Origin: Escherichia coli
Lineage (GTDB): Bacteria > Pseudomonadota > Gammaproteobacteria > Enterobacterales > Enterobacteriaceae
Length of the DNA: 64,000 nucleotides
NCBI RefSeq assembly: GCF_017348835.2
Contig: NZ_CP071375.1
Reading direction: 5' to 3' (one strand)
A program made the translations under genes and the position numbers. Below are positions 54,602-64,000 of the stretch, in pieces; the first letter of the stretch is position 1; each line of letters begins with the position of its first letter. The notes beneath the pieces are model-generated. The model was given only the letters and a program-made list of their open reading frames with translations, had not been told where the DNA came from and ran no database searches.

Positions 54602-54928
54602 ATGACTAAAAATACTCGTTTTTCCCCCGAAGTCCGTCAGCGGGCGATTCGTATGGTTCTGGAAAGTCAGGATGAATATGACTCACAGTGGGCGGCAATT
54701 TGTTCCATTGCCCCAAAGATTGGCTGTACGCCGGAGACTCTGCGTGTCTGGGTTCGCCAGCATGAGCGGGATACCGGGAGTGGTGATGGTGGACTCACCA
54801 CCGCTGAACGTCAGCGTCTGAAAGAGCTGGAACGTGAAAATCGTGAACTGCGCCGCAGTAACGATATCCTTCGCCAGGCTTCCGCTTATTTTGCGAAGGC
54901 GGAGTTCGACCGCCTCTGGAAAAAATAA
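54602..54928 (+). CDS. IS3-family transposase OrfA (HTH DNA-binding part)
   Basis: 108-aa [33 protein letters not shown]... with a leucine-zipper-like C-terminus; A-rich slippery run (ggaaaaaataatg) at its 3' end. Confidence 0.85.
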
Positions 54929-55815
54929 TGCCACTGCTGGATAAGCTGCGTGAGCAGTACGGGGTCGGACCGGTATGCAGCGAACTGCATATTGCCCCGT
55001 CAACGTATTACCATTGTCAGCAACAGCGACATCATCCGGATAAACGCAGTGCCCGTGCGCAGCACGATGACTGGCTGAAGAAAGAGATACAGCGCGTATA
55101 CGATGAAAATCACCAGGTATACGGTGTGCGTAAAGTCTGGCGTCAGTTGTTACGGGAAGGTATCAGAGTGGCCAGATGCACTGTGGCACGTCTCATGGCA
55201 GTTATGGGACTTGCCGGTGTTCTCCGGGGTAAAAAGGTCCGCACTACCGTCAGCCGGAAAGCCGTTGCCGCATGCGACCGCGTAAACCGTCAGTTCGTGG
55301 CAGAACGTCCAGACCAGTTGTGGGTGGCTGATTTTACCTGGGTAAGCACATGGCAGGGCTTCGTTTATGTGGCGTTCATCATTGATGTGTTCGCCGGATA
55401 CATCGTGGGATGGCAGGTCTCATCATCCATGGAAACAACATTCGTGCTGGATGCACTGGAGCAGGCGTTGTGGGCCCGTCGGCCGTCCGGCACAATCCAT
55501 CACAGTGATAAAGGTTCTCAGTATGTATCGCTGGCCTACACGCAGCGGCTTAAGGAAGCCGGATTACTGGCATCAACAGGGAGTACTGGCGACTCGTATG
55601 ACAACGCGATGGCTGAGAGCATCAATGGTCTTTACAAAGCGGAGGTAATACACCGTAAGAGCTGGAAAAACCGGACAGAAGTGGAACTGGCCACACTAAC
55701 GTGGGTGGACTGGTATAACAATCGACGATTGCTGGAAAGGCTGGGCCATATTCCTCCGGCAGAAGCAGAAAAAGCTTATTATGCTTCCATCGGAAATAAT
55801 GATCTGGCAGCCTGA
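54928..55815 (+). CDS. IS3-family transposase OrfB (DDE integrase catalytic domain)
   Basis: 295-aa ORF in the -1 frame relative to OrfA; rve/DDE core recognisable (WVADFTWVST ... DKGSQYVS ... DNAMAES). Confidence 0.85.
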   Translation: MPLLDKLREQYGVGPVCSELHIAPSTYYHCQQQRHHPDKRSARAQHDDWLKKEIQRVYDENHQVYGVRKVWRQLLREGIRVARCTVARLMAVMGLAGVLRGKKVRTTVSRKAVAACDRVNRQFVAERPDQLWVADFTWVSTWQGFVYVAFIIDVFAGYIVGWQVSSSMETTFVLDALEQALWARRPSGTIHHSDKGSQYVSLAYTQRLKEAGLLASTGSTGDSYDNAMAESINGLYKAEVIHRKSWKNRTEVELATLTWVDWYNNRRLLERLGHIPPAEAEKAYYASIGNNDLAA

Positions 55816-56045: not shown

Positions 56046-57446
56046 TCAAGATTTATTATTACCCGATAAGCTATCACCGGCAAAATCATCATGTTCGCGG
56101 TTATCCCGACGAGTAGCTGTTTGTTTACTTATCTGAGTCGCCAACTCCTCTCCAATAGTTTGTTGGGCACGAGAAGAACTGCTACTTCGCTTCATTCTCT
56201 GGTACTCAGCAGCTCCGTTAGCCATGCTGCTTCCCATATGGCTTGCCATGCGGCCAGCACGCGAGAATGAAGCAAACCCCTGACTTCCTCCACTGGCGCT
56301 ACCTGAACTGCTCCCTGCAGACGAACCACTGTAACCGCCTGAGGTTTGGCCTCCAGAAGTATCTACAGAACCGGTATCTTCCCCGCCGCCAAATCCTCCA
56401 CCGGAACCGCCTCCGCTGCCTGAACCAGATTCTTCGTCCATGGCAGCTTGCGCAGACTCGAATGCTGCCTTTAATGCTGAAGCTCCGCCGCTGACTTGAG
56501 CTGATGCCCCCATTGCCATTGCTCCAGCACCGCTGATGGCAGTAGCGGCTGCGCCGGTAATCATACCCGCCCCAAATCCACCAATCCCTTGTAAAGAAGC
56601 CCCTCCTACAACACCTGATAACAACAGTGGTAGCTTATTAGTTAATACTAACAGGATAATTGACGCCAGAAGCAAAACTATAAGACTATTAAGATCAGGA
56701 ACATCATCTTTAATAAGAGAAAAATATTGATCTATAAATGATTGTCCAATCCCAATAATTAATGTCATCGTGAATAATTGAATGCCAATCGATAAAACAG
56801 TTCGTAAGTAATTAATTGCTATATCAGAGGTCCATTTCGAACCACCAAACCCAAGCAATATAACTCCTGCATAACATAACACCCATGCAGAAACCAACAT
56901 GATTAGCATATTTATCGCTATAAGGGACATCACTACCAAAACGATTATCGCGACTGTTATCATAATGGTGGATATCATTGGCGACCAAATTGATGCGGCT
57001 GAACTGATCTTGGTTAATATCGCAAACGCCATATCAACTATGCTTGAGGGAGAAATACCAATACTTATTTCTAAAGCGTTTGCTGCAAGTTGTCTCATTG
57101 AATTAATTATGGATTGCGATATGGATGGACCGTTGATTAAAAGATAATAAAAAAAACCAATGACGGCAAAAAAGCGAACTATTTCAGCAAGTACCCCTGT
57201 CAACCCTTCCCCTTGCATCGCCATCATACCAAATGTCCAAACCATACTTATTAATACCAGCCCCCAGAAGAGCCAATTTGCATAGTCAGCAATTACTGCT
57301 GTCCATGTACTGGCTACTTGTTGAAACTTATCTAATAAAGTATCAAGTAGCCCGCTACTATCTAATTGACCAGCATAGGCATTAATAGAAAAGAAAAGTA
57401 TGATACCTAAAAAGGTGAGCTTACTTACTATTTTCATGATTACCAT
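56046..57446 (-). CDS. trbL: TrbL/VirB6-family conjugative transfer membrane protein
   Basis: 466-aa ORF with signal peptide, several TM helices and a long Gly/Ser-rich hydrophilic C-terminal tail, the TrbL/VirB6 architecture; synteny with trbJ and a small lipoprotein gene upstream. Confidence 0.65.
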   Translation of the reverse strand: MVIMKIVSKLTFLGIILFFSINAYAGQLDSSGLLDTLLDKFQQVASTWTAVIADYANWLFWGLVLISMVWTFGMMAMQGEGLTGVLAEIVRFFAVIGFFYYLLINGPSISQSIINSMRQLAANALEISIGISPSSIVDMAFAILTKISSAASIWSPMISTIMITVAIIVLVVMSLIAINMLIMLVSAWVLCYAGVILLGFGGSKWTSDIAINYLRTVLSIGIQLFTMTLIIGIGQSFIDQYFSLIKDDVPDLNSLIVLLLASIILLVLTNKLPLLLSGVVGGASLQGIGGFGAGMITGAAATAISGAGAMAMGASAQVSGGASALKAAFESAQAAMDEESGSGSGGGSGGGFGGGEDTGSVDTSGGQTSGGYSGSSAGSSSGSASGGSQGFASFSRAGRMASHMGSSMANGAAEYQRMKRSSSSSRAQQTIGEELATQISKQTATRRDNREHDDFAGDSLSGNNKS

Positions 57447-57631
57447 TCTCGTTTAGGGCTTGGTTTATTATTACTCCGTAGAGCACATTTATCGTATTTA
57501 TGTTCATCAAATTTATTATCTGGCATCGATAAACAATCTTTATCATTTTTATCGCAAGAACATATGGCCAATAAACTGATCAGAATAAATACAATCAAAA
57601 AATTATCTTTCATTCTGCGTTTCCTCACCAA
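57440..57631 (-). CDS. Small lipoprotein in the TrbK (IncP entry-exclusion) position
   Basis: 63-aa ORF with a hydrophobic leader and Cys-containing lipobox-like motif (LLAICSCDK); overlaps the trbJ stop and trbL start, as trbJ-trbK-trbL does in IncP plasmids. Confidence 0.45.
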   Translation of the reverse strand: MVRKRRMKDNFLIVFILISLLAICSCDKNDKDCLSMPDNKFDEHKYDKCALRSNNKPSPKREW

Positions 57632-58419
57632 ATTCGCTTCGGGCTTGGTGTATTCTCTCCAGCTAACGCTTTTTCATCAGCGGCTATCTGTTGTGATTCT
57701 TTATCTGCCTGAGCCTGTGCCAGTGTTGCTGCAGCGTTTTGTTGGGCTACCAGAAGTGAGCGGATTTGCAGTAACTGATTTGTCTGTGCACTGGCAAGCT
57801 GGTTTGCCGCCTGAATAGCTTCCATTTGCCCTTGTGCGCCGCTTGCCTGAGTTTGTAATTCGGCAAGATTATCAGCATCGCTCTGCAGGGTGTTCTGCTG
57901 CTCGTCAATTACCTTAAATACTGCGTCATTGGCCTTTTTACGCGCCCCTGAGCTATTCTGTTCAGCTTCACGCAGTGCACTAATTTCAGACGCGGTACAT
58001 TCAACATTGCTGTTAAAGCAAGACGATGTCCTGTAGTAGTTAACATCCTGATAGCGTTTCAGGTACGCATCGAGACTCCCGGCCTGATTCTTGTAGTAAT
58101 TAAGGGTATCCTGCACCTGCAACAATTTATTAATTGTTGAATTTGCCTGGTCCCAGATATAGGCCGCAGGAGCTACGGTGTTCTGCAGCATGTTTTCATA
58201 CTGCTGCAGCTGCGTCTGGTACTGCTGGATTTGTTTAGTCACAGCCTGAACGTTGTTAACTGCGCTGATTGTGGTCTGAACCACATTAGTGCCATCAATA
58301 ACGGGAATTCCGGCCTTCACCGGTAATGCCATGACGGACGCCACGAAAGGAACTATTAAAGCTTTTTTAGCGGCTAAAATCCCTCTTTGTGATGAAACCA
58401 CTCGGAACTTTAAATTCAT
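57625..58419 (-). CDS. trbJ: TrbJ/VirB5-family conjugative transfer protein
   Basis: 264-aa ORF with signal peptide and Gln/Ala-rich coiled-coil stretches typical of TrbJ/VirB5 minor pilus/adhesin proteins. Confidence 0.6.
   Translation of the reverse strand: MNLKFRVVSSQRGILAAKKALIVPFVASVMALPVKAGIPVIDGTNVVQTTISAVNNVQAVTKQIQQYQTQLQQYENMLQNTVAPAAYIWDQANSTINKLLQVQDTLNYYKNQAGSLDAYLKRYQDVNYYRTSSCFNSNVECTASEISALREAEQNSSGARKKANDAVFKVIDEQQNTLQSDADNLAELQTQASGAQGQMEAIQAANQLASAQTNQLLQIRSLLVAQQNAAATLAQAQADKESQQIAADEKALAGENTPSPKRIW
58365..58379. promoter_or_regulatory. KorB-operator-like palindrome TTTTAGCGGCTAAAA (copy 1, inside the 5' end of trbJ)
   Basis: Perfect inverted repeat containing TTTAGCGGCTAAA, identical to the IncP-1 KorB operator consensus TTTAGC(G/C)GCTAAA. 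Confidence 0.6.
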
Positions 58420-58499
58420 TTGCTCACCTCTTTTTCAACAGATTAGTAATATTTAACACTCTGTCTGTTAACAGACGCAGGTATATAGGAAACCACACA

Positions 58500-58865
58500 T
58501 TATTTATCCAAGATTTTATCCATAATGTTCCTTAGTTCTTGCCGAGTTGATTCTATTTTCGCAAGCAAGGTTCTTATCAGTGTGGGTGAAAAATCAACTG
58601 TTCGAGGATCATTTGCGAGCCATAATTTAAGTAATCCGCCAAGTCTTCCAAGATCAGCATTTACTCGGCTAAGTTCATTAACCTGTTTTATATCTACGAT
58701 AGAATCAACCTGATAACCCATTGCAACTCTACGAACAAAACAGGCAACACTTAATCCAGATGCTTCTGCATTTTCTTGGATGAGAATTTTTTCTTCGGGT
58801 AAACAATAAACTTTTATTGGCGTACTATTTTTTCTAGTCTGAGTAACTTTCATATAGCTCTCCAT
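58500..58865 (-). CDS. MobC-family relaxosome accessory protein (ribbon-helix-helix)
   Basis: 121-aa ORF; VYCLPEEKILIQENAEASGLSVACFVRRVAMG ... LSRVNADLGRLGGLLKLW fits the MobC-family pattern; lies directly beside a candidate oriT region. Confidence 0.55.
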   Translation of the reverse strand: MESYMKVTQTRKNSTPIKVYCLPEEKILIQENAEASGLSVACFVRRVAMGYQVDSIVDIKQVNELSRVNADLGRLGGLLKLWLANDPRTVDFSPTLIRTLLAKIESTRQELRNIMDKILDK

Positions 58866-58939
58866 ACAGGCGGTAGCCTGGCAGCCTCGCAGAGCAGGAC
58901 GCCCTTGAGCCGCGATGCGGCGAATAGGGAGTGGTAAAG

Positions 58940-58995
58940 TTGGAACACCGTAGCGGTGGGCCCACTTTACATGTCCTGCCCTGCAGTTGCCGTTG
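58940..58995. promoter_or_regulatory. Candidate origin of transfer (oriT-like region)
   Basis: 10-bp perfect palindrome GTGGGCCCAC (58956-58965) immediately followed by CTTTACATGTCCTGCCCTGCAG, which resembles my recollection of the IncP nic region (core TCCTGCCC); adjacent to the MobC-like gene. Confidence 0.35.
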
Positions 58996-59252
58996 TATAT
59001 CTGTGCACGACAATGTGTATTTCAGTGTACAGGATGTGTTTTCTTAGCGTATTAATATAGGATTACTGGAGTAAATTTCTGCAGCAAATGTGTTTTTTGC
59101 AAGGAAACTATATTTCTCCCTTTTGAAAATGACCTTTAGTAGTTATAAATGGACGTCCACCAACTGTATTTATGTTTCGATATATTGTAAGAAGTCTTTC
59201 ATTTTCCGATGCACTTTTTTACTTACCTTGTCAGAGCATGTGCATTGCAGAT

Positions 59253-59265
59253 TTTAGCGGCTAAA
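59253..59265. promoter_or_regulatory. KorB-operator-like palindrome (copy 2)
   Basis: aTTTTAGCGGCTAAAATc; exact match to the IncP-1 KorB operator core, in the 675-bp intergenic region. Confidence 0.6.
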
Positions 59266-59501
59266 ATCTGCCTCCCTATGCCTAAAGCTAGGGGCGTACC
59301 TCATATGTCATAAAATCTACCTCAAGTGTCAATATACCAAACGTGTAAGTAATCTCTTCTTCTGGCGTACAACCATCGGTCTTTGGCCGATTCTAGATTT
59401 GAAAGCGCCTGCTCAGGCAGGTGATTTCAAAGCCTGAATATACTGGTTGATCCTGAATAACCTGCAAAGGAGTTAAAAAATCAGGCCTCTGTAGCACACT
59501 G

Positions 59502-59562
59502 GCGGGCCGTTACAGCACATCACCGGGCCGTAACGACACGTTACCGGGCCGTTGTAGCTCGT
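59502..59562. repeat. Three direct iteron-like repeats with 21-bp periodicity
   Basis: CGGGCCGT recurs at 59503, 59524 and 59545 with similar flanks (..TACAGCACAT / ..AACGACACGT / ..TGTAGCTCG); the third overlaps the stop codon of the putative initiator gene. Confidence 0.5.
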
Positions 59563-60314
59563 TTTATCCTAGAATTTTGTATCTCAATGCCAATCGCTAG
59601 AAATTGTTTGCTATCTTCTTTTAATCTCCGCCGATAGTTACGTAATGTCATATTATTGGTACCTTCACCACTGACAGCTAAAATTAATGTATCAATATGC
59701 CAGCCGCCTTTAGGATCGTGCTTATGTGTTAATATATGACGTGCAACTGCTTGGCTAATACCATGCTGGAGACGAGCAATAGGACCTGGATCATGATGAA
59801 AATGCAAATCTCGCTTCAACAACATTACCAATGCAACACCCAAGCGTACTCTCCATAGGTTACGTTCACCACCAGTTAGAGGATTACGCCTAGTCATTGG
59901 TGAGGGTACGACATGGTCAATTAAACCGCCTAGAATGCAATAACCGTTTTTTTCTAAATCTGGCGTTACTATTTCAACAGTTGCCACACGTAGATCAACG
60001 AGTAGTTTTTTAATTCGATCATAACTGTATTGTGCATCGGATAGAGTTCGGCGTACTTTCGCTGGATCTACTAATAACTCGATTCCTCCATCAGAAATTT
60101 CTCGACGTTTCTCGGCCACATAGAGCATTGTTTCCACAATATCCGCATGACGTTGTCCTAGTCTTCCGGTAACTCGACAACGACCAAAACTAGTCTCCAT
60201 CCACTGCCCCTTCAGCGCCAAGGGACGTTGACTTGGTTGGTACAGAATGACTCTAGCCTGCAGAGCTGTGCTAGTAGGTGTAACTTTATTACCAGTTATC
60301 ATTTTCTGCACCAC
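59541..60314 (-). CDS. Hypothetical protein, possible replication initiator (RepC-like by position)
   Basis: 257-aa basic protein directly downstream of the RepA-like helicase gene and ending in the iteron-like repeats; assignment rests on gene order, not on recognised motifs. Confidence 0.35.
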   Translation of the reverse strand: MVQKMITGNKVTPTSTALQARVILYQPSQRPLALKGQWMETSFGRCRVTGRLGQRHADIVETMLYVAEKRREISDGGIELLVDPAKVRRTLSDAQYSYDRIKKLLVDLRVATVEIVTPDLEKNGYCILGGLIDHVVPSPMTRRNPLTGGERNLWRVRLGVALVMLLKRDLHFHHDPGPIARLQHGISQAVARHILTHKHDPKGGWHIDTLILAVSGEGTNNMTLRNYRRRLKEDSKQFLAIGIEIQNSRIKRATTAR

Positions 60315-60330
60315 TCAATGAAGACATACA

Positions 60331-61146
60331 TTATTTTGCTATTTGTTTTTTATTCTTCGATTTGAGTTGCGTTATCCTTAATACTCCTCCCTCATGTCTC
60401 TGTAACCAACGTTCTGGCGTACGTTCTCCATAATTTGCTTTATTTATTCCAAATCTAACAAATTGACCTCGAACATCATCAGAAATATCATACGTCTTCG
60501 CTTCTAAGGCGGTCATGCCCGCCAGATAAGATTGCCACCGTATATTATCAACCAGGACGCTACTACCCCTGCTTGCCTGCTGTATATCACCAACTCCCAT
60601 CGTGGCAGAGCCTTTGTTTGAATGGTGTAGAAATATAATCGAACACCCTGTATCAGCAGCAATACCTTCTAGCTTTCCAATGACTTTGGACATTGCTCCG
60701 CTATTATTTTCATCTTCCTGGTGGAAACGGCGAAGAGTATCCAAAATTATTAACCGTCTACTTTTTGAAATCTCATTAATCAAGTTGCTCCAACCTGGCG
60801 AGAAAATATTTGGACACTTCCCTACCAAAGGTTCGACAAGTAGCTTATCAGCAACAATCTGCTGCTGACGTGCTGTTAGATATTTTCCCAAAGCATATAG
60901 ACGATGGTGAATGATGGTTGCAGAGTCCTCCACAGGTAAATATGCCACTAACCCCGTTGGATATTCACCAAAGTTTAAAAGATCTACACCACAAGTAATC
61001 TGCACAGCCAGTTGCAATGCCAGCATTGACTTTCCAACGCCTCCCGGAGAAACAATCGCTCCGATAGTACCAATAGCCAAATTAGGCAAGACGTAATCAA
61101 TTGGTTGCGGCTTAGCTTCAAATGCTTCCATTATGTTCAATGACAT
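60331..61146 (-). CDS. RecA-fold AAA_25 ATPase, RSF1010 RepA-like replicative helicase
   Basis: 271-aa ORF with Walker A (SPGGVGKSMLALQLA) and Walker B-like (RLIILDTL) motifs; size and motif layout as in IncQ RepA. Confidence 0.6.
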   Translation of the reverse strand: MSLNIMEAFEAKPQPIDYVLPNLAIGTIGAIVSPGGVGKSMLALQLAVQITCGVDLLNFGEYPTGLVAYLPVEDSATIIHHRLYALGKYLTARQQQIVADKLLVEPLVGKCPNIFSPGWSNLINEISKSRRLIILDTLRRFHQEDENNSGAMSKVIGKLEGIAADTGCSIIFLHHSNKGSATMGVGDIQQASRGSSVLVDNIRWQSYLAGMTALEAKTYDISDDVRGQFVRFGINKANYGERTPERWLQRHEGGVLRITQLKSKNKKQIAK

Positions 61147-61151
61147 TGCTG

Positions 61152-61403
61152 TTACCTACCTAAAACAATACCGGGTCTGGCTGCTTTAAACATTGCTGAT
61201 TTACGATCCGCAATCCACTGTTCCACTTCGGATAACTGCCATGCAACATTTCGGCTCGTAAGTGCTATACGGCGAGGAAACTCGCCTCGCTGTTCAAGGT
61301 TATAAATAGTGCGGGCTGACAATGGGATCATTTCCAGAAGTGTTTTTCTGTTAATGAGCGTGCTATGTGCCTTTGTTTGCATCTGCCTTCCTCCTGTTTC
61401 CAA
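61152..61403 (-). CDS. alpA: AlpA-family prophage/island transcriptional regulator (excisionase-like)
   Basis: 83-aa ORF with the AlpA HTH signature (LSARTIYNLEQRGEFPRRIALTSRNVAWQLSEVEQWI). Confidence 0.7.
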   Translation of the reverse strand: METGGRQMQTKAHSTLINRKTLLEMIPLSARTIYNLEQRGEFPRRIALTSRNVAWQLSEVEQWIADRKSAMFKAARPGIVLGR

Positions 61404-61459
61404 TCAGGCCTATACAATGCCAAGCATTACCACTTGCTAAAACCTATTCATTGGCTAAA

Positions 61460-62431
61460 ATGGTTGACATGAAAATTACTATCTGGGAAGGCTGTGACCT
61501 CACAGTTGCAGCTGCAATTAAATTATTTGTAGAGCGTAGTTCTCCGTACTCCATATTTTCACGGAGGTATCCAATACTGCGTCTCATACAGGAAGTTATT
61601 GATCCAGCAGTAGCTGATTATGTAAATTCCCTGCCACCAAGTCATAAAGACTACATTTCTGGAGTAAATCTAGGATTTAGTGAAGTACTTAAAAAATTGG
61701 GTTTAAACGTCGTAGTACAGGCACAAAGACTTCTTTTGCGTAATTTCGTTCTGACTTTAGATCAACAAACTTCTCTTGATAAATGCTTTACCGCTACGAT
61801 TGAGTCTCTTATTGAATTAGTCAGTGAATGCGCATCCAAGCGGCCGAAGAAATCCTCTCCTGCAAAAGGAGTAACTATAAATTCACAGCGTAAGCTCGGT
61901 TATTGCGAGTTCTGCGGTAATCTAACCGAATTTTCCAAGTTGATCAGTGAGATATCAGAATTTGTTGCTAACGATAATGAGTTCCCCGTTCATGAAAAAC
62001 AGGTCCTTAGTCATCGATATTGTTCTGACCATAGGCCCAAACTCACCAATGGTCTATGGAATCCCAAATACAGACAAGGAAAGCGGTCTCTCGAACAGTT
62101 CAATAAAGAATTAATAAGGCTTAGACGGCAATGCGCTAAACCTCATAAAGCTAACGCAAACACAGGGGATATATTGATTGATACATATTTTCATGAGTGG
62201 ATGCAGGGTCAAACTTTAACCCCAGCAGATCTAGATAAACTTAGGAATATCGCCAGACGAATGGTTGACTCCAAATTCACTGATACTAAGAAAAAAATAA
62301 TCATATTAAAACACCAAGGTTTTAACCAGTTTGAAACCGCACAGGTTTTAGAAAAAAATCACTACACAACTATGACAAAGCAGGCTGTGTCCAAGGCCTT
62401 AGCGTCTGTGAGGAAAGAATTTTATATTTAA
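61460..62431 (+). CDS. Hypothetical protein with Cys/His cluster and C-terminal helix-turn-helix
   Basis: ORF track starts at 61367, overlapping alpA; a more plausible start is the ATG at 61460 (MVDMKITIW). Contains CEFCGN ... HRYCSDH and a C-terminal HTH-like segment; no family recognised. Confidence 0.45.
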   Translation: MVDMKITIWEGCDLTVAAAIKLFVERSSPYSIFSRRYPILRLIQEVIDPAVADYVNSLPPSHKDYISGVNLGFSEVLKKLGLNVVVQAQRLLLRNFVLTLDQQTSLDKCFTATIESLIELVSECASKRPKKSSPAKGVTINSQRKLGYCEFCGNLTEFSKLISEISEFVANDNEFPVHEKQVLSHRYCSDHRPKLTNGLWNPKYRQGKRSLEQFNKELIRLRRQCAKPHKANANTGDILIDTYFHEWMQGQTLTPADLDKLRNIARRMVDSKFTDTKKKIIILKHQGFNQFETAQVLEKNHYTTMTKQAVSKALASVRKEFYI

Positions 62432-62856
62432 AATAGTATATCCACGAGCTATTATGGTGGCAGTTTAAGTCTTAATACCATCCACTTTATTGAATTATAA
62501 CCAGCCACTTACGAAGGTTTTTCGCGATTACCCTGCTTCAAATTGATGATTTTGAAAATACAGTATTATAGTTTATTGTTTGTAGCGCAGCTGTAAGCGT
62601 TATGCAAAATGGATCACAGTGATACGACCTCACCAGTAAATCACTGAAGCCGATCTGTAATGACATAGAACGAATTGGTTTTATGGTTATGCAATGGCTC
62701 ATCCCCTTACTTGTCCCTGACCATAAAAAGCATTCGCTTTCCTGAAAGCAAGTCTAAGCCAAGGGGCGTTTACAGTTGTCTTATCTTGACTCATTAGGTA
62801 CTGGCTTAATGATTAGAATCATGTCGGTGGCATTTAGGTCCAAATATGCCCAAAAT

Positions 62857-62869
62857 TTTAGCAGCTAAA
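62857..62869. promoter_or_regulatory. KorB-operator-like palindrome (copy 3, central A variant)
   Basis: aTTTTAGCAGCTAAAATt; same arms with a central A instead of G/C. Confidence 0.5.
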
Positions 62870-62900
62870 ATTCGTCTTCTCATGTAGGGTCAAGAAGCTT

Positions 62901-63098
62901 ATGACTAAACCTATTGATTATGTGAATTACCTTGTGAGTAATACTCGTAGGATGGAATCTTCCAAAACTCTGACAATTCACTCTGAATGCATGGTAACAA
63001 AGAACAGTTTAAACCATGGTCTGTTCAGCGTTAAATTTCTCAAGATAGACTTCCATTTCGCGAGTCCACCTAGGGGTAGGTACCGAGGTGATCATTAG
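62901..63098 (+). CDS. Small hypothetical ORF (65 aa), doubtful
   Basis: Begins about 30 bp after KorB-like copy 3 but overlaps the 3' end of the convergent 209-aa ORF; weak ribosome-binding site. Confidence 0.2.
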   Translation: MTKPIDYVNYLVSNTRRMESSKTLTIHSECMVTKNSLNHGLFSVKFLKIDFHFASPPRGRYRGDH

Positions 63099-63638
63099 CC
63101 AAGGAAACCACCATACAAGCATGAAGAGTAACATAAGCGGTGCGATCATTTCGGCCGAAGAATGAGAAACTATATACATAATGAATAATATTAGTAGAAC
63201 TGTGTTTACAATCTGACCTACCAGAAAAAGACGCCAGCGAAAACAATGCCATTTCCTGTTGAACACAATCCGTCCATCCCGTTCTTCGAGCCAGTTACGC
63301 CACGGCTTGAGATAACCAGCCCGCAACCCATAACGATCACACATTATTACAGCCAAATCCTGCAGCCGATAATTATACAAGCCTGTGAGCCGATAAAGGC
63401 TGCGCTGACGAAGCTCACGCTTTGCCAGACGGACCGCATTTTTATTCAAATATGGCTGTGTCAGCATTTGCTCTAGCCGGCGCTTCCTAAGATTGAGTAG
63501 TCCACGAAATACACTTCCAGATTCAGCATTAATTACTCTGTGACGAACTACACCGAGTGCAATATAGATACACAGCAATAGCCAGCCGGTCTTAGGGTAT
63601 TGATTCATCCATTGTATAATTACAGACAACTCAGGCAC
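63009..63638 (-). CDS. Hypothetical membrane protein (209 aa)
   Basis: Two to three predicted TM helices separated by an Arg-rich loop; KorB-like copy 4 lies about 55 bp upstream of its start; no family recognised. Confidence 0.5.
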   Translation of the reverse strand: MPELSVIIQWMNQYPKTGWLLLCIYIALGVVRHRVINAESGSVFRGLLNLRKRRLEQMLTQPYLNKNAVRLAKRELRQRSLYRLTGLYNYRLQDLAVIMCDRYGLRAGYLKPWRNWLEERDGRIVFNRKWHCFRWRLFLVGQIVNTVLLILFIMYIVSHSSAEMIAPLMLLFMLVWWFPWLMITSVPTPRWTREMEVYLEKFNAEQTMV

Positions 63639-63692
63639 TTTTATTTTTCCTTTTTATGCAATCCAGATAAAACCAGTAAAGATTCAGTAAAT

Positions 63693-63705
63693 TTTAGCGG
63701 CTAAA
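63693..63705. promoter_or_regulatory. KorB-operator-like palindrome (copy 4)
   Basis: aTTTTAGCGGCTAAAATt, between the 209-aa membrane protein gene and the integrase gene. Confidence 0.6.
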
Positions 63706-63761
63706 ATTGCTCTCCTGGCGTAGAAAAAAGAAGCACACCAACTTAACTTACTGATTATTAA

Positions 63762-64000
63762 CTACTTACTAGTCCATTCATCAATCATATTCGCCCAATC
63801 TTGTAGCATCTCAGCCCTCTGCTCACGATATTCTGCCTTGTTATAAACAGCTCGTACCCCTTTTTGTTCATGGGCAAGGCTCTTCTCAATCCAGTCAGTA
63901 TTGTACCCGGCCTCATGTAGCAAGGTGCTGGCTGTACGCCGTAAGTCATGGGGACCAAACTTAGGCAACAACTCCCCTTCTTTCTGAGCCAGGCGATACG
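63762..64000 (-). CDS. int: Tyrosine recombinase (P4-type integrase), C-terminal part; the gene continues past the window end
   Basis: Frame open to the window edge; C-terminal sequence ...GPHDLRRTASTLLHEAGYNTDWIEKSLAHEQKGVRAVYNKAEYREQRAEML contains the catalytic H-x-x-R and Tyr region of phage-type integrases. Confidence 0.75.
   Translation of the reverse strand, partial: YRLAQKEGELLPKFGPHDLRRTASTLLHEAGYNTDWIEKSLAHEQKGVRAVYNKAEYREQRAEMLQDWANMIDEWTSK

Follow-up and report, generated by a model that had tools for sequence, protein, structure and literature searches.

Which functions are encoded between the regulator and the integrase of a genomic island in the Escherichia coli contig NZ_CP071375.1 (assembly GCF_017348835.2), and how might this island be linked to a helper plasmid? 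The stretch that we analysed, referred to as the window, comprises 64,000 nucleotides. An earlier note on this DNA had pointed to two open reading frames (ORFs) of unknown family in this position, one for a protein combining a Cys/His cluster with a C-terminal helix-turn-helix (HTH) and one for a small membrane protein. Both ORFs lie where they had been placed, at 61460-62431 on the plus strand (323 amino acids, aa) and at 63009-63638 on the minus strand (209 aa), between the gene for an AlpA-like HTH protein and the integrase gene beside guaA. Our results suggest that the former encodes the LuxR-type regulator of a PIME1-type integrative mobilizable element (IME), that the latter is a cargo cassette, and that a set of KorB operators (OBs) may tie the junction of luxR, int and cargo, and possibly partition, to the KorB protein of an IncP-1 helper. 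We hold this reading as a whole with moderate confidence.

Bases 58400-64000 of the window are 100% identical to the chromosome of E. coli PE164, where the annotated gene order is yfgG, IS3, trbL, trbJ, traJ, a 253-aa hypothetical protein (257 aa when counted from a GTG start further upstream, as in the list of ORFs), a RepA-family helicase, the AlpA-like HTH protein, LuxR, the 209-aa hypothetical protein, a tyrosine integrase and guaA. PIMEs were described in a January 2026 preprint as ~1,100 elements from some 100 proteobacterial species that carry defence systems and resistance genes; PIME1 members are inserted at guaA, have core genes co-oriented with int and contain a luxR-family gene divergent from alpA (bioRxiv 10.64898/2026.01.12.698999). 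As the gene order in the identical PE164 chromosome matches this definition, the island is a PIME1-type IME at guaA, truncated by IS3 beyond trbL. In the window, trbL, trbJ, traJ, the 257-aa gene, the RepA helicase gene, alpA and int are all present on the minus strand, and luxR (61460-62431, plus strand) is divergent from alpA (61152-61382, minus strand), an excisionase/regulator gene whose pairing with the LuxR-like gene is the hallmark of PIME1. The window itself stops within int, which is followed by guaA in the identical genome. The described elements PIME1EcRHB23-C07 and PIME1MmNCTC12028 have in common with the island the guaA insertion, the one-strand array of int, alpA, RepA helicase, traJ and trbJ-trbK-trbL, the divergent luxR and a slot for accessory genes that separates int from the regulators, and, by analogy, would share with it the dependence on an IncP helper.

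The island copy differs from the E. coli prototype, which measures 22.2 kb, in that it spans only ~9.5 kb and lacks the accessory half. An IS3-family element at 54602-55815 abuts trbL (56046), and the large accessory region of an intact PIME1 is therefore missing. The identical genome was searched for an att direct repeat between the IS3/trbL end and the int/guaA end, and none was found. This copy is probably an immobile remnant. The truncation and the missing att repeat could further be taken to mean that the entire region is decaying in this strain and that both genes are functionless passengers, which we consider very unlikely: both ORFs are intact, the alpA-luxR-209-aa module occurs at 98-100% identity in 32 of 5,426 complete E. 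coli genomes, and the 209-aa gene has a ratio of nonsynonymous to synonymous substitution rates (dN/dS) below 0.5.

The 323-aa ORF coincides with the RefSeq coding sequence WP_153645549 ('LuxR family transcriptional regulator') of the identical chromosome. The protein consists of an N-terminal helical domain, a C149-x2-C152...C188-x2-H191 arrangement that is predicted to form a metal-binding (zinc) knuckle, a long helix and a C-terminal HTH. No change in C149, C152, C188 or H191 occurs among 35 homologues with identities down to 49%, a WNP.YRQ.KRS motif is likewise invariant, and the HTH is confidently modelled by AlphaFold (pLDDT 78.8 for the all-helical model, in which the knuckle is poorly ordered). 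The Cys/His cluster and the C-terminal HTH named in the earlier note are thus both borne out, and so is its assignment to an unknown family, since neither protein gave a significant match in Pfam, NCBIfam, PHROGs or PADLOC. A sequence-profile search against the PDB found nothing for the regulator, and its structural matches are confined to the C-terminal HTH, which is sigma-4/LuxR-like; residues 1-250 match no known fold in the structure search. LuxR/FixJ (GerE-type) and sigma-70 region 4 regulators differ from this protein by its N-terminal region of ~250 aa without fold match and its C3H metal knuckle. No Pfam match to GerE (PF00196) was obtained at E ≤ 10, and the Pfam, PDB sequence and fold searches revealed neither a receiver nor an autoinducer-binding domain in residues 1-250.

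A word-indexed search yielded 373 homologues, many of them named 'LuxR family' by NCBI, and precomputed Pfam matches on a few of these are HTH_23, HTH_8 and Sigma70_r4_2. We collected 63 genomic loci with relatives of the regulator from alpha-, beta- and gammaproteobacteria. As the family was present on only one of 72,556 plasmids, it appears to be a protein of integrated elements. In the Morganella element PIME1MmNCTC12028, deletion of luxR, alpA or int abolishes excision, circularisation, replication and transfer induced by the IncP plasmid pB10, with partial complementation in trans (bioRxiv 10.64898/2026.01.12.698999). Because the 323-aa protein matches the LuxR that is the hallmark of PIME1, and because deletion of luxR abolishes mobility in that element, it is, by analogy, a core mobility regulator and not an effector or cargo; the deletion phenotype would carry over by family membership and conserved position. 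Hence, the alternatives previously left open for this protein, a regulator or a nucleic-acid-binding effector, narrow to the regulator, and the statement that the two ORFs are the only ones without a mobility role does not hold for luxR. The protein is already known in kind, as the PIME1 regulator, and is new only as a member of this family.

Translation of luxR probably starts at the invariant ATG at 61469 rather than at the annotated start. A promoter-like arrangement on the plus strand (61434-61461; TTGCTA-16-TAAAAT), which we infer from its sequence, is followed by GGTTGAC and then by this ATG, and the pattern TTGnnn-16/17-nAnAAT-GGTTGAC-ATG precedes the invariant Met4 in 43 of the 63 related loci. 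As the -10 element ends 7 nt ahead of the ATG, this suggests a leaderless luxR mRNA. In three loci (L014 from Xanthomonas, L020 from Diaphorobacter and L017 from a betaproteobacterial metagenome-assembled genome) alpA is not divergent; it comes after luxR on the same strand and precedes an OB and then int, which is a rearranged regulatory module.

The feature that may connect the island to its helper is located next to the 209-aa gene. The palindrome upstream of this gene, AATTTTAGCGGCTAAAATT, contains a 13-bp KorB operator together with the preferred flanks (PMC5577506; bioRxiv 10.64898/2026.05.27.728120). Its core at 63693-63705, TTTAGCGGCTAAA, matches the RK2 OB core in 13 of 13 positions, and the flanks are those described as 'most favourable', AATTTTAGCGGCTAAAA (PMC5577506). 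It lies in the 123-bp spacer between int and the 209-aa gene, 55 bp upstream of the start codon of the latter. The earlier note had assigned a KorB-like operator to the promoter of this gene. The operator is indeed present and exact, whereas a scan for consensus sigma-70 promoters beside the junction OBs gave no convincing site; TAAAAT hexamers at these OBs were rejected as promoter elements, being part of the OB flanks themselves. A search of the window with the pattern TTTAGCNGCTAAA returned four matches (58366, 59253, 62857 and 63693), all within the island, compared to 0.14 expected. The consensus TTTAGC(G/C)GCTAAA is exact at 58366, 59253 and 63693, while the site at 62857 has a central A. 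The site at 58366-58378 lies in the 5' end of trbJ and that at 59253-59265 between traJ/oriT on one side and the replication genes on the other. No ParB/KorB gene is annotated in the island.

These operators are a feature of the whole family. The 63 related loci (871 kb) contain 115 exact OBs compared to 0.05 expected, with at least one OB in 54 of the loci and a central G or C in 106 of the 115 sites. Among the 59 loci with enough downstream sequence, 47 have an OB within 1.4 kb after luxR, 26 of them within 60 nt. The DNA around these sites varies from AT-rich to GC-rich with the 13-mer intact, and the Xanthomonas-type elements keep the site in the order luxR-alpA-OB-int. The OB between luxR and int is an ancestral trait of the family, which elements without the 209-aa gene have as well; it is not a private feature of the promoter of that gene. 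A second recurring OB is located between the replication genes and traJ/oriT; at least ten related loci carry one at a distance from luxR equivalent to that of the 59253 site. The proximity to luxR (47 of 59 loci) raises the question of whether the palindromes are operators of the element's own LuxR-type protein, either alone or in competition with KorB, with the IncP identity being mimicry or coincidence. The island encodes no other candidate binder, and the LuxR-like HTH is without known target, which would suit such a role. We nevertheless regard it as very unlikely: in all 12 symmetric positions, in the G/C centre and in the A/T flanks the palindromes agree exactly with the OB of RK2, an IncP plasmid that lacks a LuxR-like gene carries 13 such sites, the helpers shown to induce are IncP-1 plasmids, and nine loci keep luxR but have no OB. 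In these OB-less loci, no consistent alternative palindrome was detected at the 3' end of luxR.

The IncP plasmid in question, pPSS-04_3 from E. coli (NZ_AP027669.1), has genes of the trfA, korA, incC, korB, korC, kle/kla/kfr, trb and tra types. Of its 13 exact OBs, one occupies the 5' end of trbJ, a position that is also found in the island. The proteins of the plasmid are ~86% (TrbJ), 65% (TraJ) and 55% (TrbL) identical to those of the island. Among the tested plasmids, the IncP plasmids pB10 and pKJK5 were the specific inducers of PIME1, and they induced the E. coli PIME1 without mobilising it (bioRxiv 10.64898/2026.01.12.698999). Plasmids of the pPSS-04_3 type are much closer candidates for natural helpers than pB10 and pKJK5. 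They belong to a clade of 45-63-kb enterobacterial IncP plasmids with TrbJ ~86% identical to that of the island, and 110 plasmid records fall at 80-90%. The island resembles the RK2/RP4 KorB regulon in the 13-bp operator, the preferred flanks, the presence of several copies and the copy in the trbJ 5' end. In contrast to that regulon, its OBs are orphans, without korB, incC, korA or KorA operators, and its conserved OB lies between convergent gene 3' ends and not upstream of a promoter.

In IncP-1 plasmids, KorB serves as a ParB-type clamp that depends on CTP; it loads at OB, slides, represses together with KorA or TrbA and acts with IncC in partition (PMC11790492; bioRxiv 10.64898/2026.05.27.728120). 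As the island has four OBs and no korB of its own, helper KorB would be expected to load on them. A comparable case is SGI1 with its IncC helper, an IME with sites for helper-encoded DNA-binding proteins that time its excision, replication and stability (PMC10954446); the corresponding link of the island to a helper is predicted from its operators. SGI1 differs in using the helper activator AcaCD together with its own parS-like sites, whereas the only helper protein with matching sites in the island is the repressor/ParB protein KorB, so that the logic of induction would differ. The precedent also bears on a non-regulatory explanation, according to which the OBs are centromere-like sites for partition of the excised element by the helper's IncC/KorB, with KorB titration leading to incompatibility. 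KorB being the ParB of IncP-1 plasmids, and SGI1 hijacking the parABS system of its IncC helper (PMC10954446), are in line with it. According to the preprint, moreover, pB10 falls in copy number and colonies become small only if the PIME excises and replicates, and a repA-oriV mini-replicon segregates poorly (bioRxiv 10.64898/2026.01.12.698999), observations which partition of the excised circle and KorB titration would fit. This explanation leaves unaccounted for, however, that elements from alpha-, beta- and gammaproteobacteria retain an OB at the luxR/int junction and that the slot cargo is bracketed by two OBs. It is also compatible with a regulatory role and does not exclude it. We therefore consider a purely partition-related function possible but doubtful, and regard regulation at the junction and partition/titration as plausible, non-exclusive consequences of KorB binding.

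Turning to the cargo, luxR and int are convergent in most PIME1 relatives, with ~40 bp between their stop codons. Other members carry genes in this slot, namely Gabija in Vibrio sp. MEBiC08052 (L007; GajA 2e-239, GajB 6e-213), a CBASS of type II whose effector is a 2TM protein in V. cincinnatiensis (L052), a restriction-modification system in the Morganella element (bioRxiv 10.64898/2026.01.12.698999), and, in a second element at guaA of E. coli, genes for an 83-aa protein and an entry-exclusion lipoprotein of the 'EexN family'. This second element, which has a different RepA and a 344-aa LuxR-like protein, is present in ~57 genomes. The luxR-int slot is thus a hotspot for defence and exclusion cargo in PIME1 relatives, as the earlier note had expected of an integrase-proximal position.

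In the window, the slot holds the 209-aa gene (63009-63638, minus strand), bracketed by two copies of a 57-nt direct repeat that are 72% identical and 836 bp apart. Copy 1 (62842-62898) contains the OB-like palindrome AATTTTAGCAGCTAAAATT (core 62857-62869, central A) and lies 139 bp past the 3' end of the gene; copy 2 (63678-63734) contains the exact OB at 63693-63705, which has the stop codon of int (63762) on one side and the start codon of the 209-aa gene (63638) on the other. In the orthologous element of Lonsdalea only the int-proximal copy of repeat and OB is present, while in the second E. coli guaA element OBs flank both sides of the 83-aa/EexN cargo. It appears that the junction sequence was duplicated when the 209-aa cassette arrived.

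The 209-aa ORF coincides with WP_023308176 ('hypothetical protein') of the identical chromosome. With dN/dS values of 0.46 against the Phytobacter and 0.29 against the Lonsdalea orthologue, it is a real gene under purifying selection. The protein contains a short N-terminal hydrophobic helix (19-31) and a strong hydrophobic hairpin (~136-158 and ~164-186, with strongly hydrophobic 19-mers), from which two to three transmembrane (TM) helices and an inner-membrane location are predicted. Between the N-terminal helix and the TM hairpin lies a helical, Arg-rich segment of 90 residues (15 Arg) with a beta-hairpin at its end, which in the model is predicted to be cytoplasmic; the C-terminus is an amphipathic helix. 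This agrees with the two to three TM helices and the Arg-rich loop noted before. The close homologues number 28, all from Enterobacterales, and at a threshold of E ≤ 0.001 the family comprises 55 clusters in a set of 1.84 billion protein representatives. The best-conserved stretch of the family is the predicted cytoplasmic ELRQ…LTG…RLQ followed by YL.PWR.WL. Ten distant relatives were, like the protein itself, without significant matches in Pfam, NCBIfam, PHROGs and PADLOC. The structure searches that had been proposed for both proteins were informative for the HTH of the regulator; for the 209-aa model, Foldseek matched only uncharacterised proteins in AFDB50. A similarity to SLATT/DUF4231 (Foldseek E ~0.02-0.03) was rejected as too weak.

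Only three of 64 luxR loci (the 63 related loci and the E. coli PE164 copy) contain the 209-aa gene, which is therefore cargo and not part of the core, in the form of a single-gene cassette. Every context of the family that could be inspected is a mobile element or has mobile-element genes nearby. On Pantoea/Erwinia plasmids with Rep3/ParA, the family gene follows a small gene for a tyrosine recombinase at a distance of 24-35 bp, and in ICE-like transfer clusters, i.e. those resembling integrative and conjugative elements (TraG_N, TraU, TraC_F_IV, DtrJ-like), it adjoins TraG_N/TraU, EcoRII or T4CP genes. Further members were found on a plasmid with ParA and a KorB-type ParB and in accessory regions of an IncI1 plasmid and of a Pantoea plasmid, in the latter case beside Abi and AAA-ATPase genes. 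No OBs were found near family genes outside PIME1.

Based on the luxR-int slot and the restriction of the family to mobile-element contexts, the 209-aa protein most likely has, by analogy, an exclusion- or defence-type accessory function; the evidence from the slot is positional. It is similar to TraS, Eex of SXT, TrbK/EexN lipoproteins and CBASS 2TM effectors in size, membrane location and occurrence as single-gene cargo on conjugative or mobilizable elements, and it likewise has no database homologues and occupies a slot that holds EexN or defence genes in sister elements. There is, by contrast, no sequence or profile similarity to any of these proteins, so that the likeness is one of context.

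A different role is indicated by the recombinase neighbourhoods. In L066, L073, L074 and L076, comprising plasmids and an ICE-like contig, relatives of the 209-aa gene follow a Phage_integrase-family gene for 183-274 aa at 24-35 bp, which looks like a two-gene recombinase/membrane-protein module. One might hence view the 209-aa protein as an accessory partner of tyrosine recombinases, that is, a membrane-tethered modulator of integration and excision or of circle resolution. The same-strand arrangement recurs in unrelated contexts, the gene directly follows int in the window, and it is the cytoplasmic domain and not the TM segments that is conserved, which fits a protein-protein interaction. 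Yet the small recombinases of L066 and L073-76 share very similar C-termini and may represent one module, leaving only about two independent associations with the family. Furthermore, six members (L065, L067, L075, L077, L081 and L082) are far from any recombinase, and most PIME1 elements, including the experimentally mobile one, do not possess the 209-aa gene. We judge this role to be unlikely; in our ranking it stands behind exclusion/defence cargo but ahead of no function. The protein is a real orphan family, rare and uncharacterised, in a defence hotspot.

How could regulator, operators and cargo work together? By analogy to PIME1MmNCTC12028, the 323-aa regulator would switch on excision and replication together with AlpA and Int when an IncP-1 helper is present. 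KorB of this helper would load on the island OBs and tie transcription at the convergent luxR/int/cargo junction, and possibly also partition of the excised circle, to helper presence. The 209-aa gene, behind an OB and downstream of int, may depend on read-through or a weak promoter for its expression, which KorB would dampen. Both the binding of KorB and these consequences are predictions drawn from the operator sequences.

The preprint leaves open which helper signal PIMEs sense (bioRxiv 10.64898/2026.01.12.698999), and it may be speculated that the orphan OBs are this missing sensor. After entry of an IncP-1 plasmid, KorB-CTP clamps would load at the OB between convergent luxR and int/cargo and stop transcription that opposes luxR, for example read-through or antisense transcription from the int/cargo side; the zinc-knuckle/HTH regulator would then accumulate and trigger excision. 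The same OBs would recruit IncC/KorB to partition the excised circle and titrate KorB from the helper, and the 209-aa protein would provide a new function in exclusion or defence, encoded by a single gene and expressed only without helper. We consider this extended scenario, with silencing by KorB of what opposes luxR at its centre, to be a tentative proposal that is more probably wrong than right.

Several observations weigh against the combined reading of regulator, cargo and KorB-linked junction. KorB is known as a repressor, and repression has been described for all four global regulators in the IncP-1 network (PMC4889941), yet IncP plasmids induce PIME excision. A KorB sensor would therefore need a double-negative step, and no component opposing luxR or alpA expression was found in the island. 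Neither was a KorA operator found in the island, and the sigma-70 scan described above identified no clear promoter beside the junction OBs. KorB binding at the island OBs is deduced from a match of letters, nine of the 63 loci contain luxR without an OB, and the OB inside trbJ may have been inherited with plasmid-derived DNA. The closest members from Proteus and Providencia, genera said to share the Morganella element, are only 34-37% identical to the regulator of the window. Concerning the cargo, the family alignment contains no catalytic-looking invariant or conserved residues, and there is no match to exclusion or defence families in NCBIfam, PADLOC, PHROGs or Pfam. Finally, the island copy is truncated, so nothing in it need function in this strain.

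Even so, conserved exact KorB operators, the lack of korB and an operator fixed at the luxR/int junction together constitute a concrete molecular candidate for helper sensing by PIMEs. If true, the hitchhiking element would plug into the repressor/ParB clamp of its helper and not into an activator, which would also account for the reported interference with the copy number of the helper; the island would then be an IME wired into the control proteins of its helper. In the open-access literature, of which our coverage was incomplete, no paper was found in which KorB is connected with GIsul2, IncP islands or PIMEs, and the PIME preprint mentions neither KorB operators nor the 209-aa gene (bioRxiv 10.64898/2026.01.12.698999). 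Relative to the searchable literature, conserved orphan KorB operators have not been described. A RepA search on plasmids for GIsul2-type elements without luxR returned IncQ-type repA only. As the 209-aa gene is on or next to mobile-element genes in every context examined and occupies the defence/exclusion hotspot of PIME1, it defines a rare, uncharacterised membrane-protein family that is a reasonable candidate for functional screening.

A non-coding segment downstream of luxR (62560-62800, ~240 bp) is conserved as well. It is 84% identical to the segment at the same relative place in the second guaA element (~57 E. coli genomes), and the genes beside it are too diverged between the two elements for megablast. 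No fold signal (z-scores of -1.4 and +0.8) and no Rfam match were obtained for an RNA structure in this segment.

The remaining genes of the island were delimited by ORFs and the annotation of the identical genome. On the minus strand these are trbL (56046-57446), trbJ (57625-58419), the RepA helicase gene (60331-61146) and the 3' end of the tyrosine integrase gene (63762-64000), which runs off the window, with guaA next in the identical genome. The G+C content drops across the island from ~0.52 to ~0.41. Between trbJ and trbL, a 63-aa ORF (57440-57631, minus strand) with a lipobox-like LLAICSC occupies the TrbK slot of IncP plasmids and is unannotated in the identical RefSeq genome; TrbK of IncP plasmids is an entry-exclusion lipoprotein. 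The leader of traJ contains the Rfam traJ-II RNA motif RF01760 (58883-58981, minus strand; 86.9 bits, E 2.8e-16) beside the presumed oriT. Directly downstream of the 257-aa gene, at 59490-59560, three tandem repeats of ~20 nt of the GGGCCGTTA/GGGCCGTAA type look like IncQ/RSF1010-style iterons of an oriV, with the exact OB at 59253 ~240 bp away.

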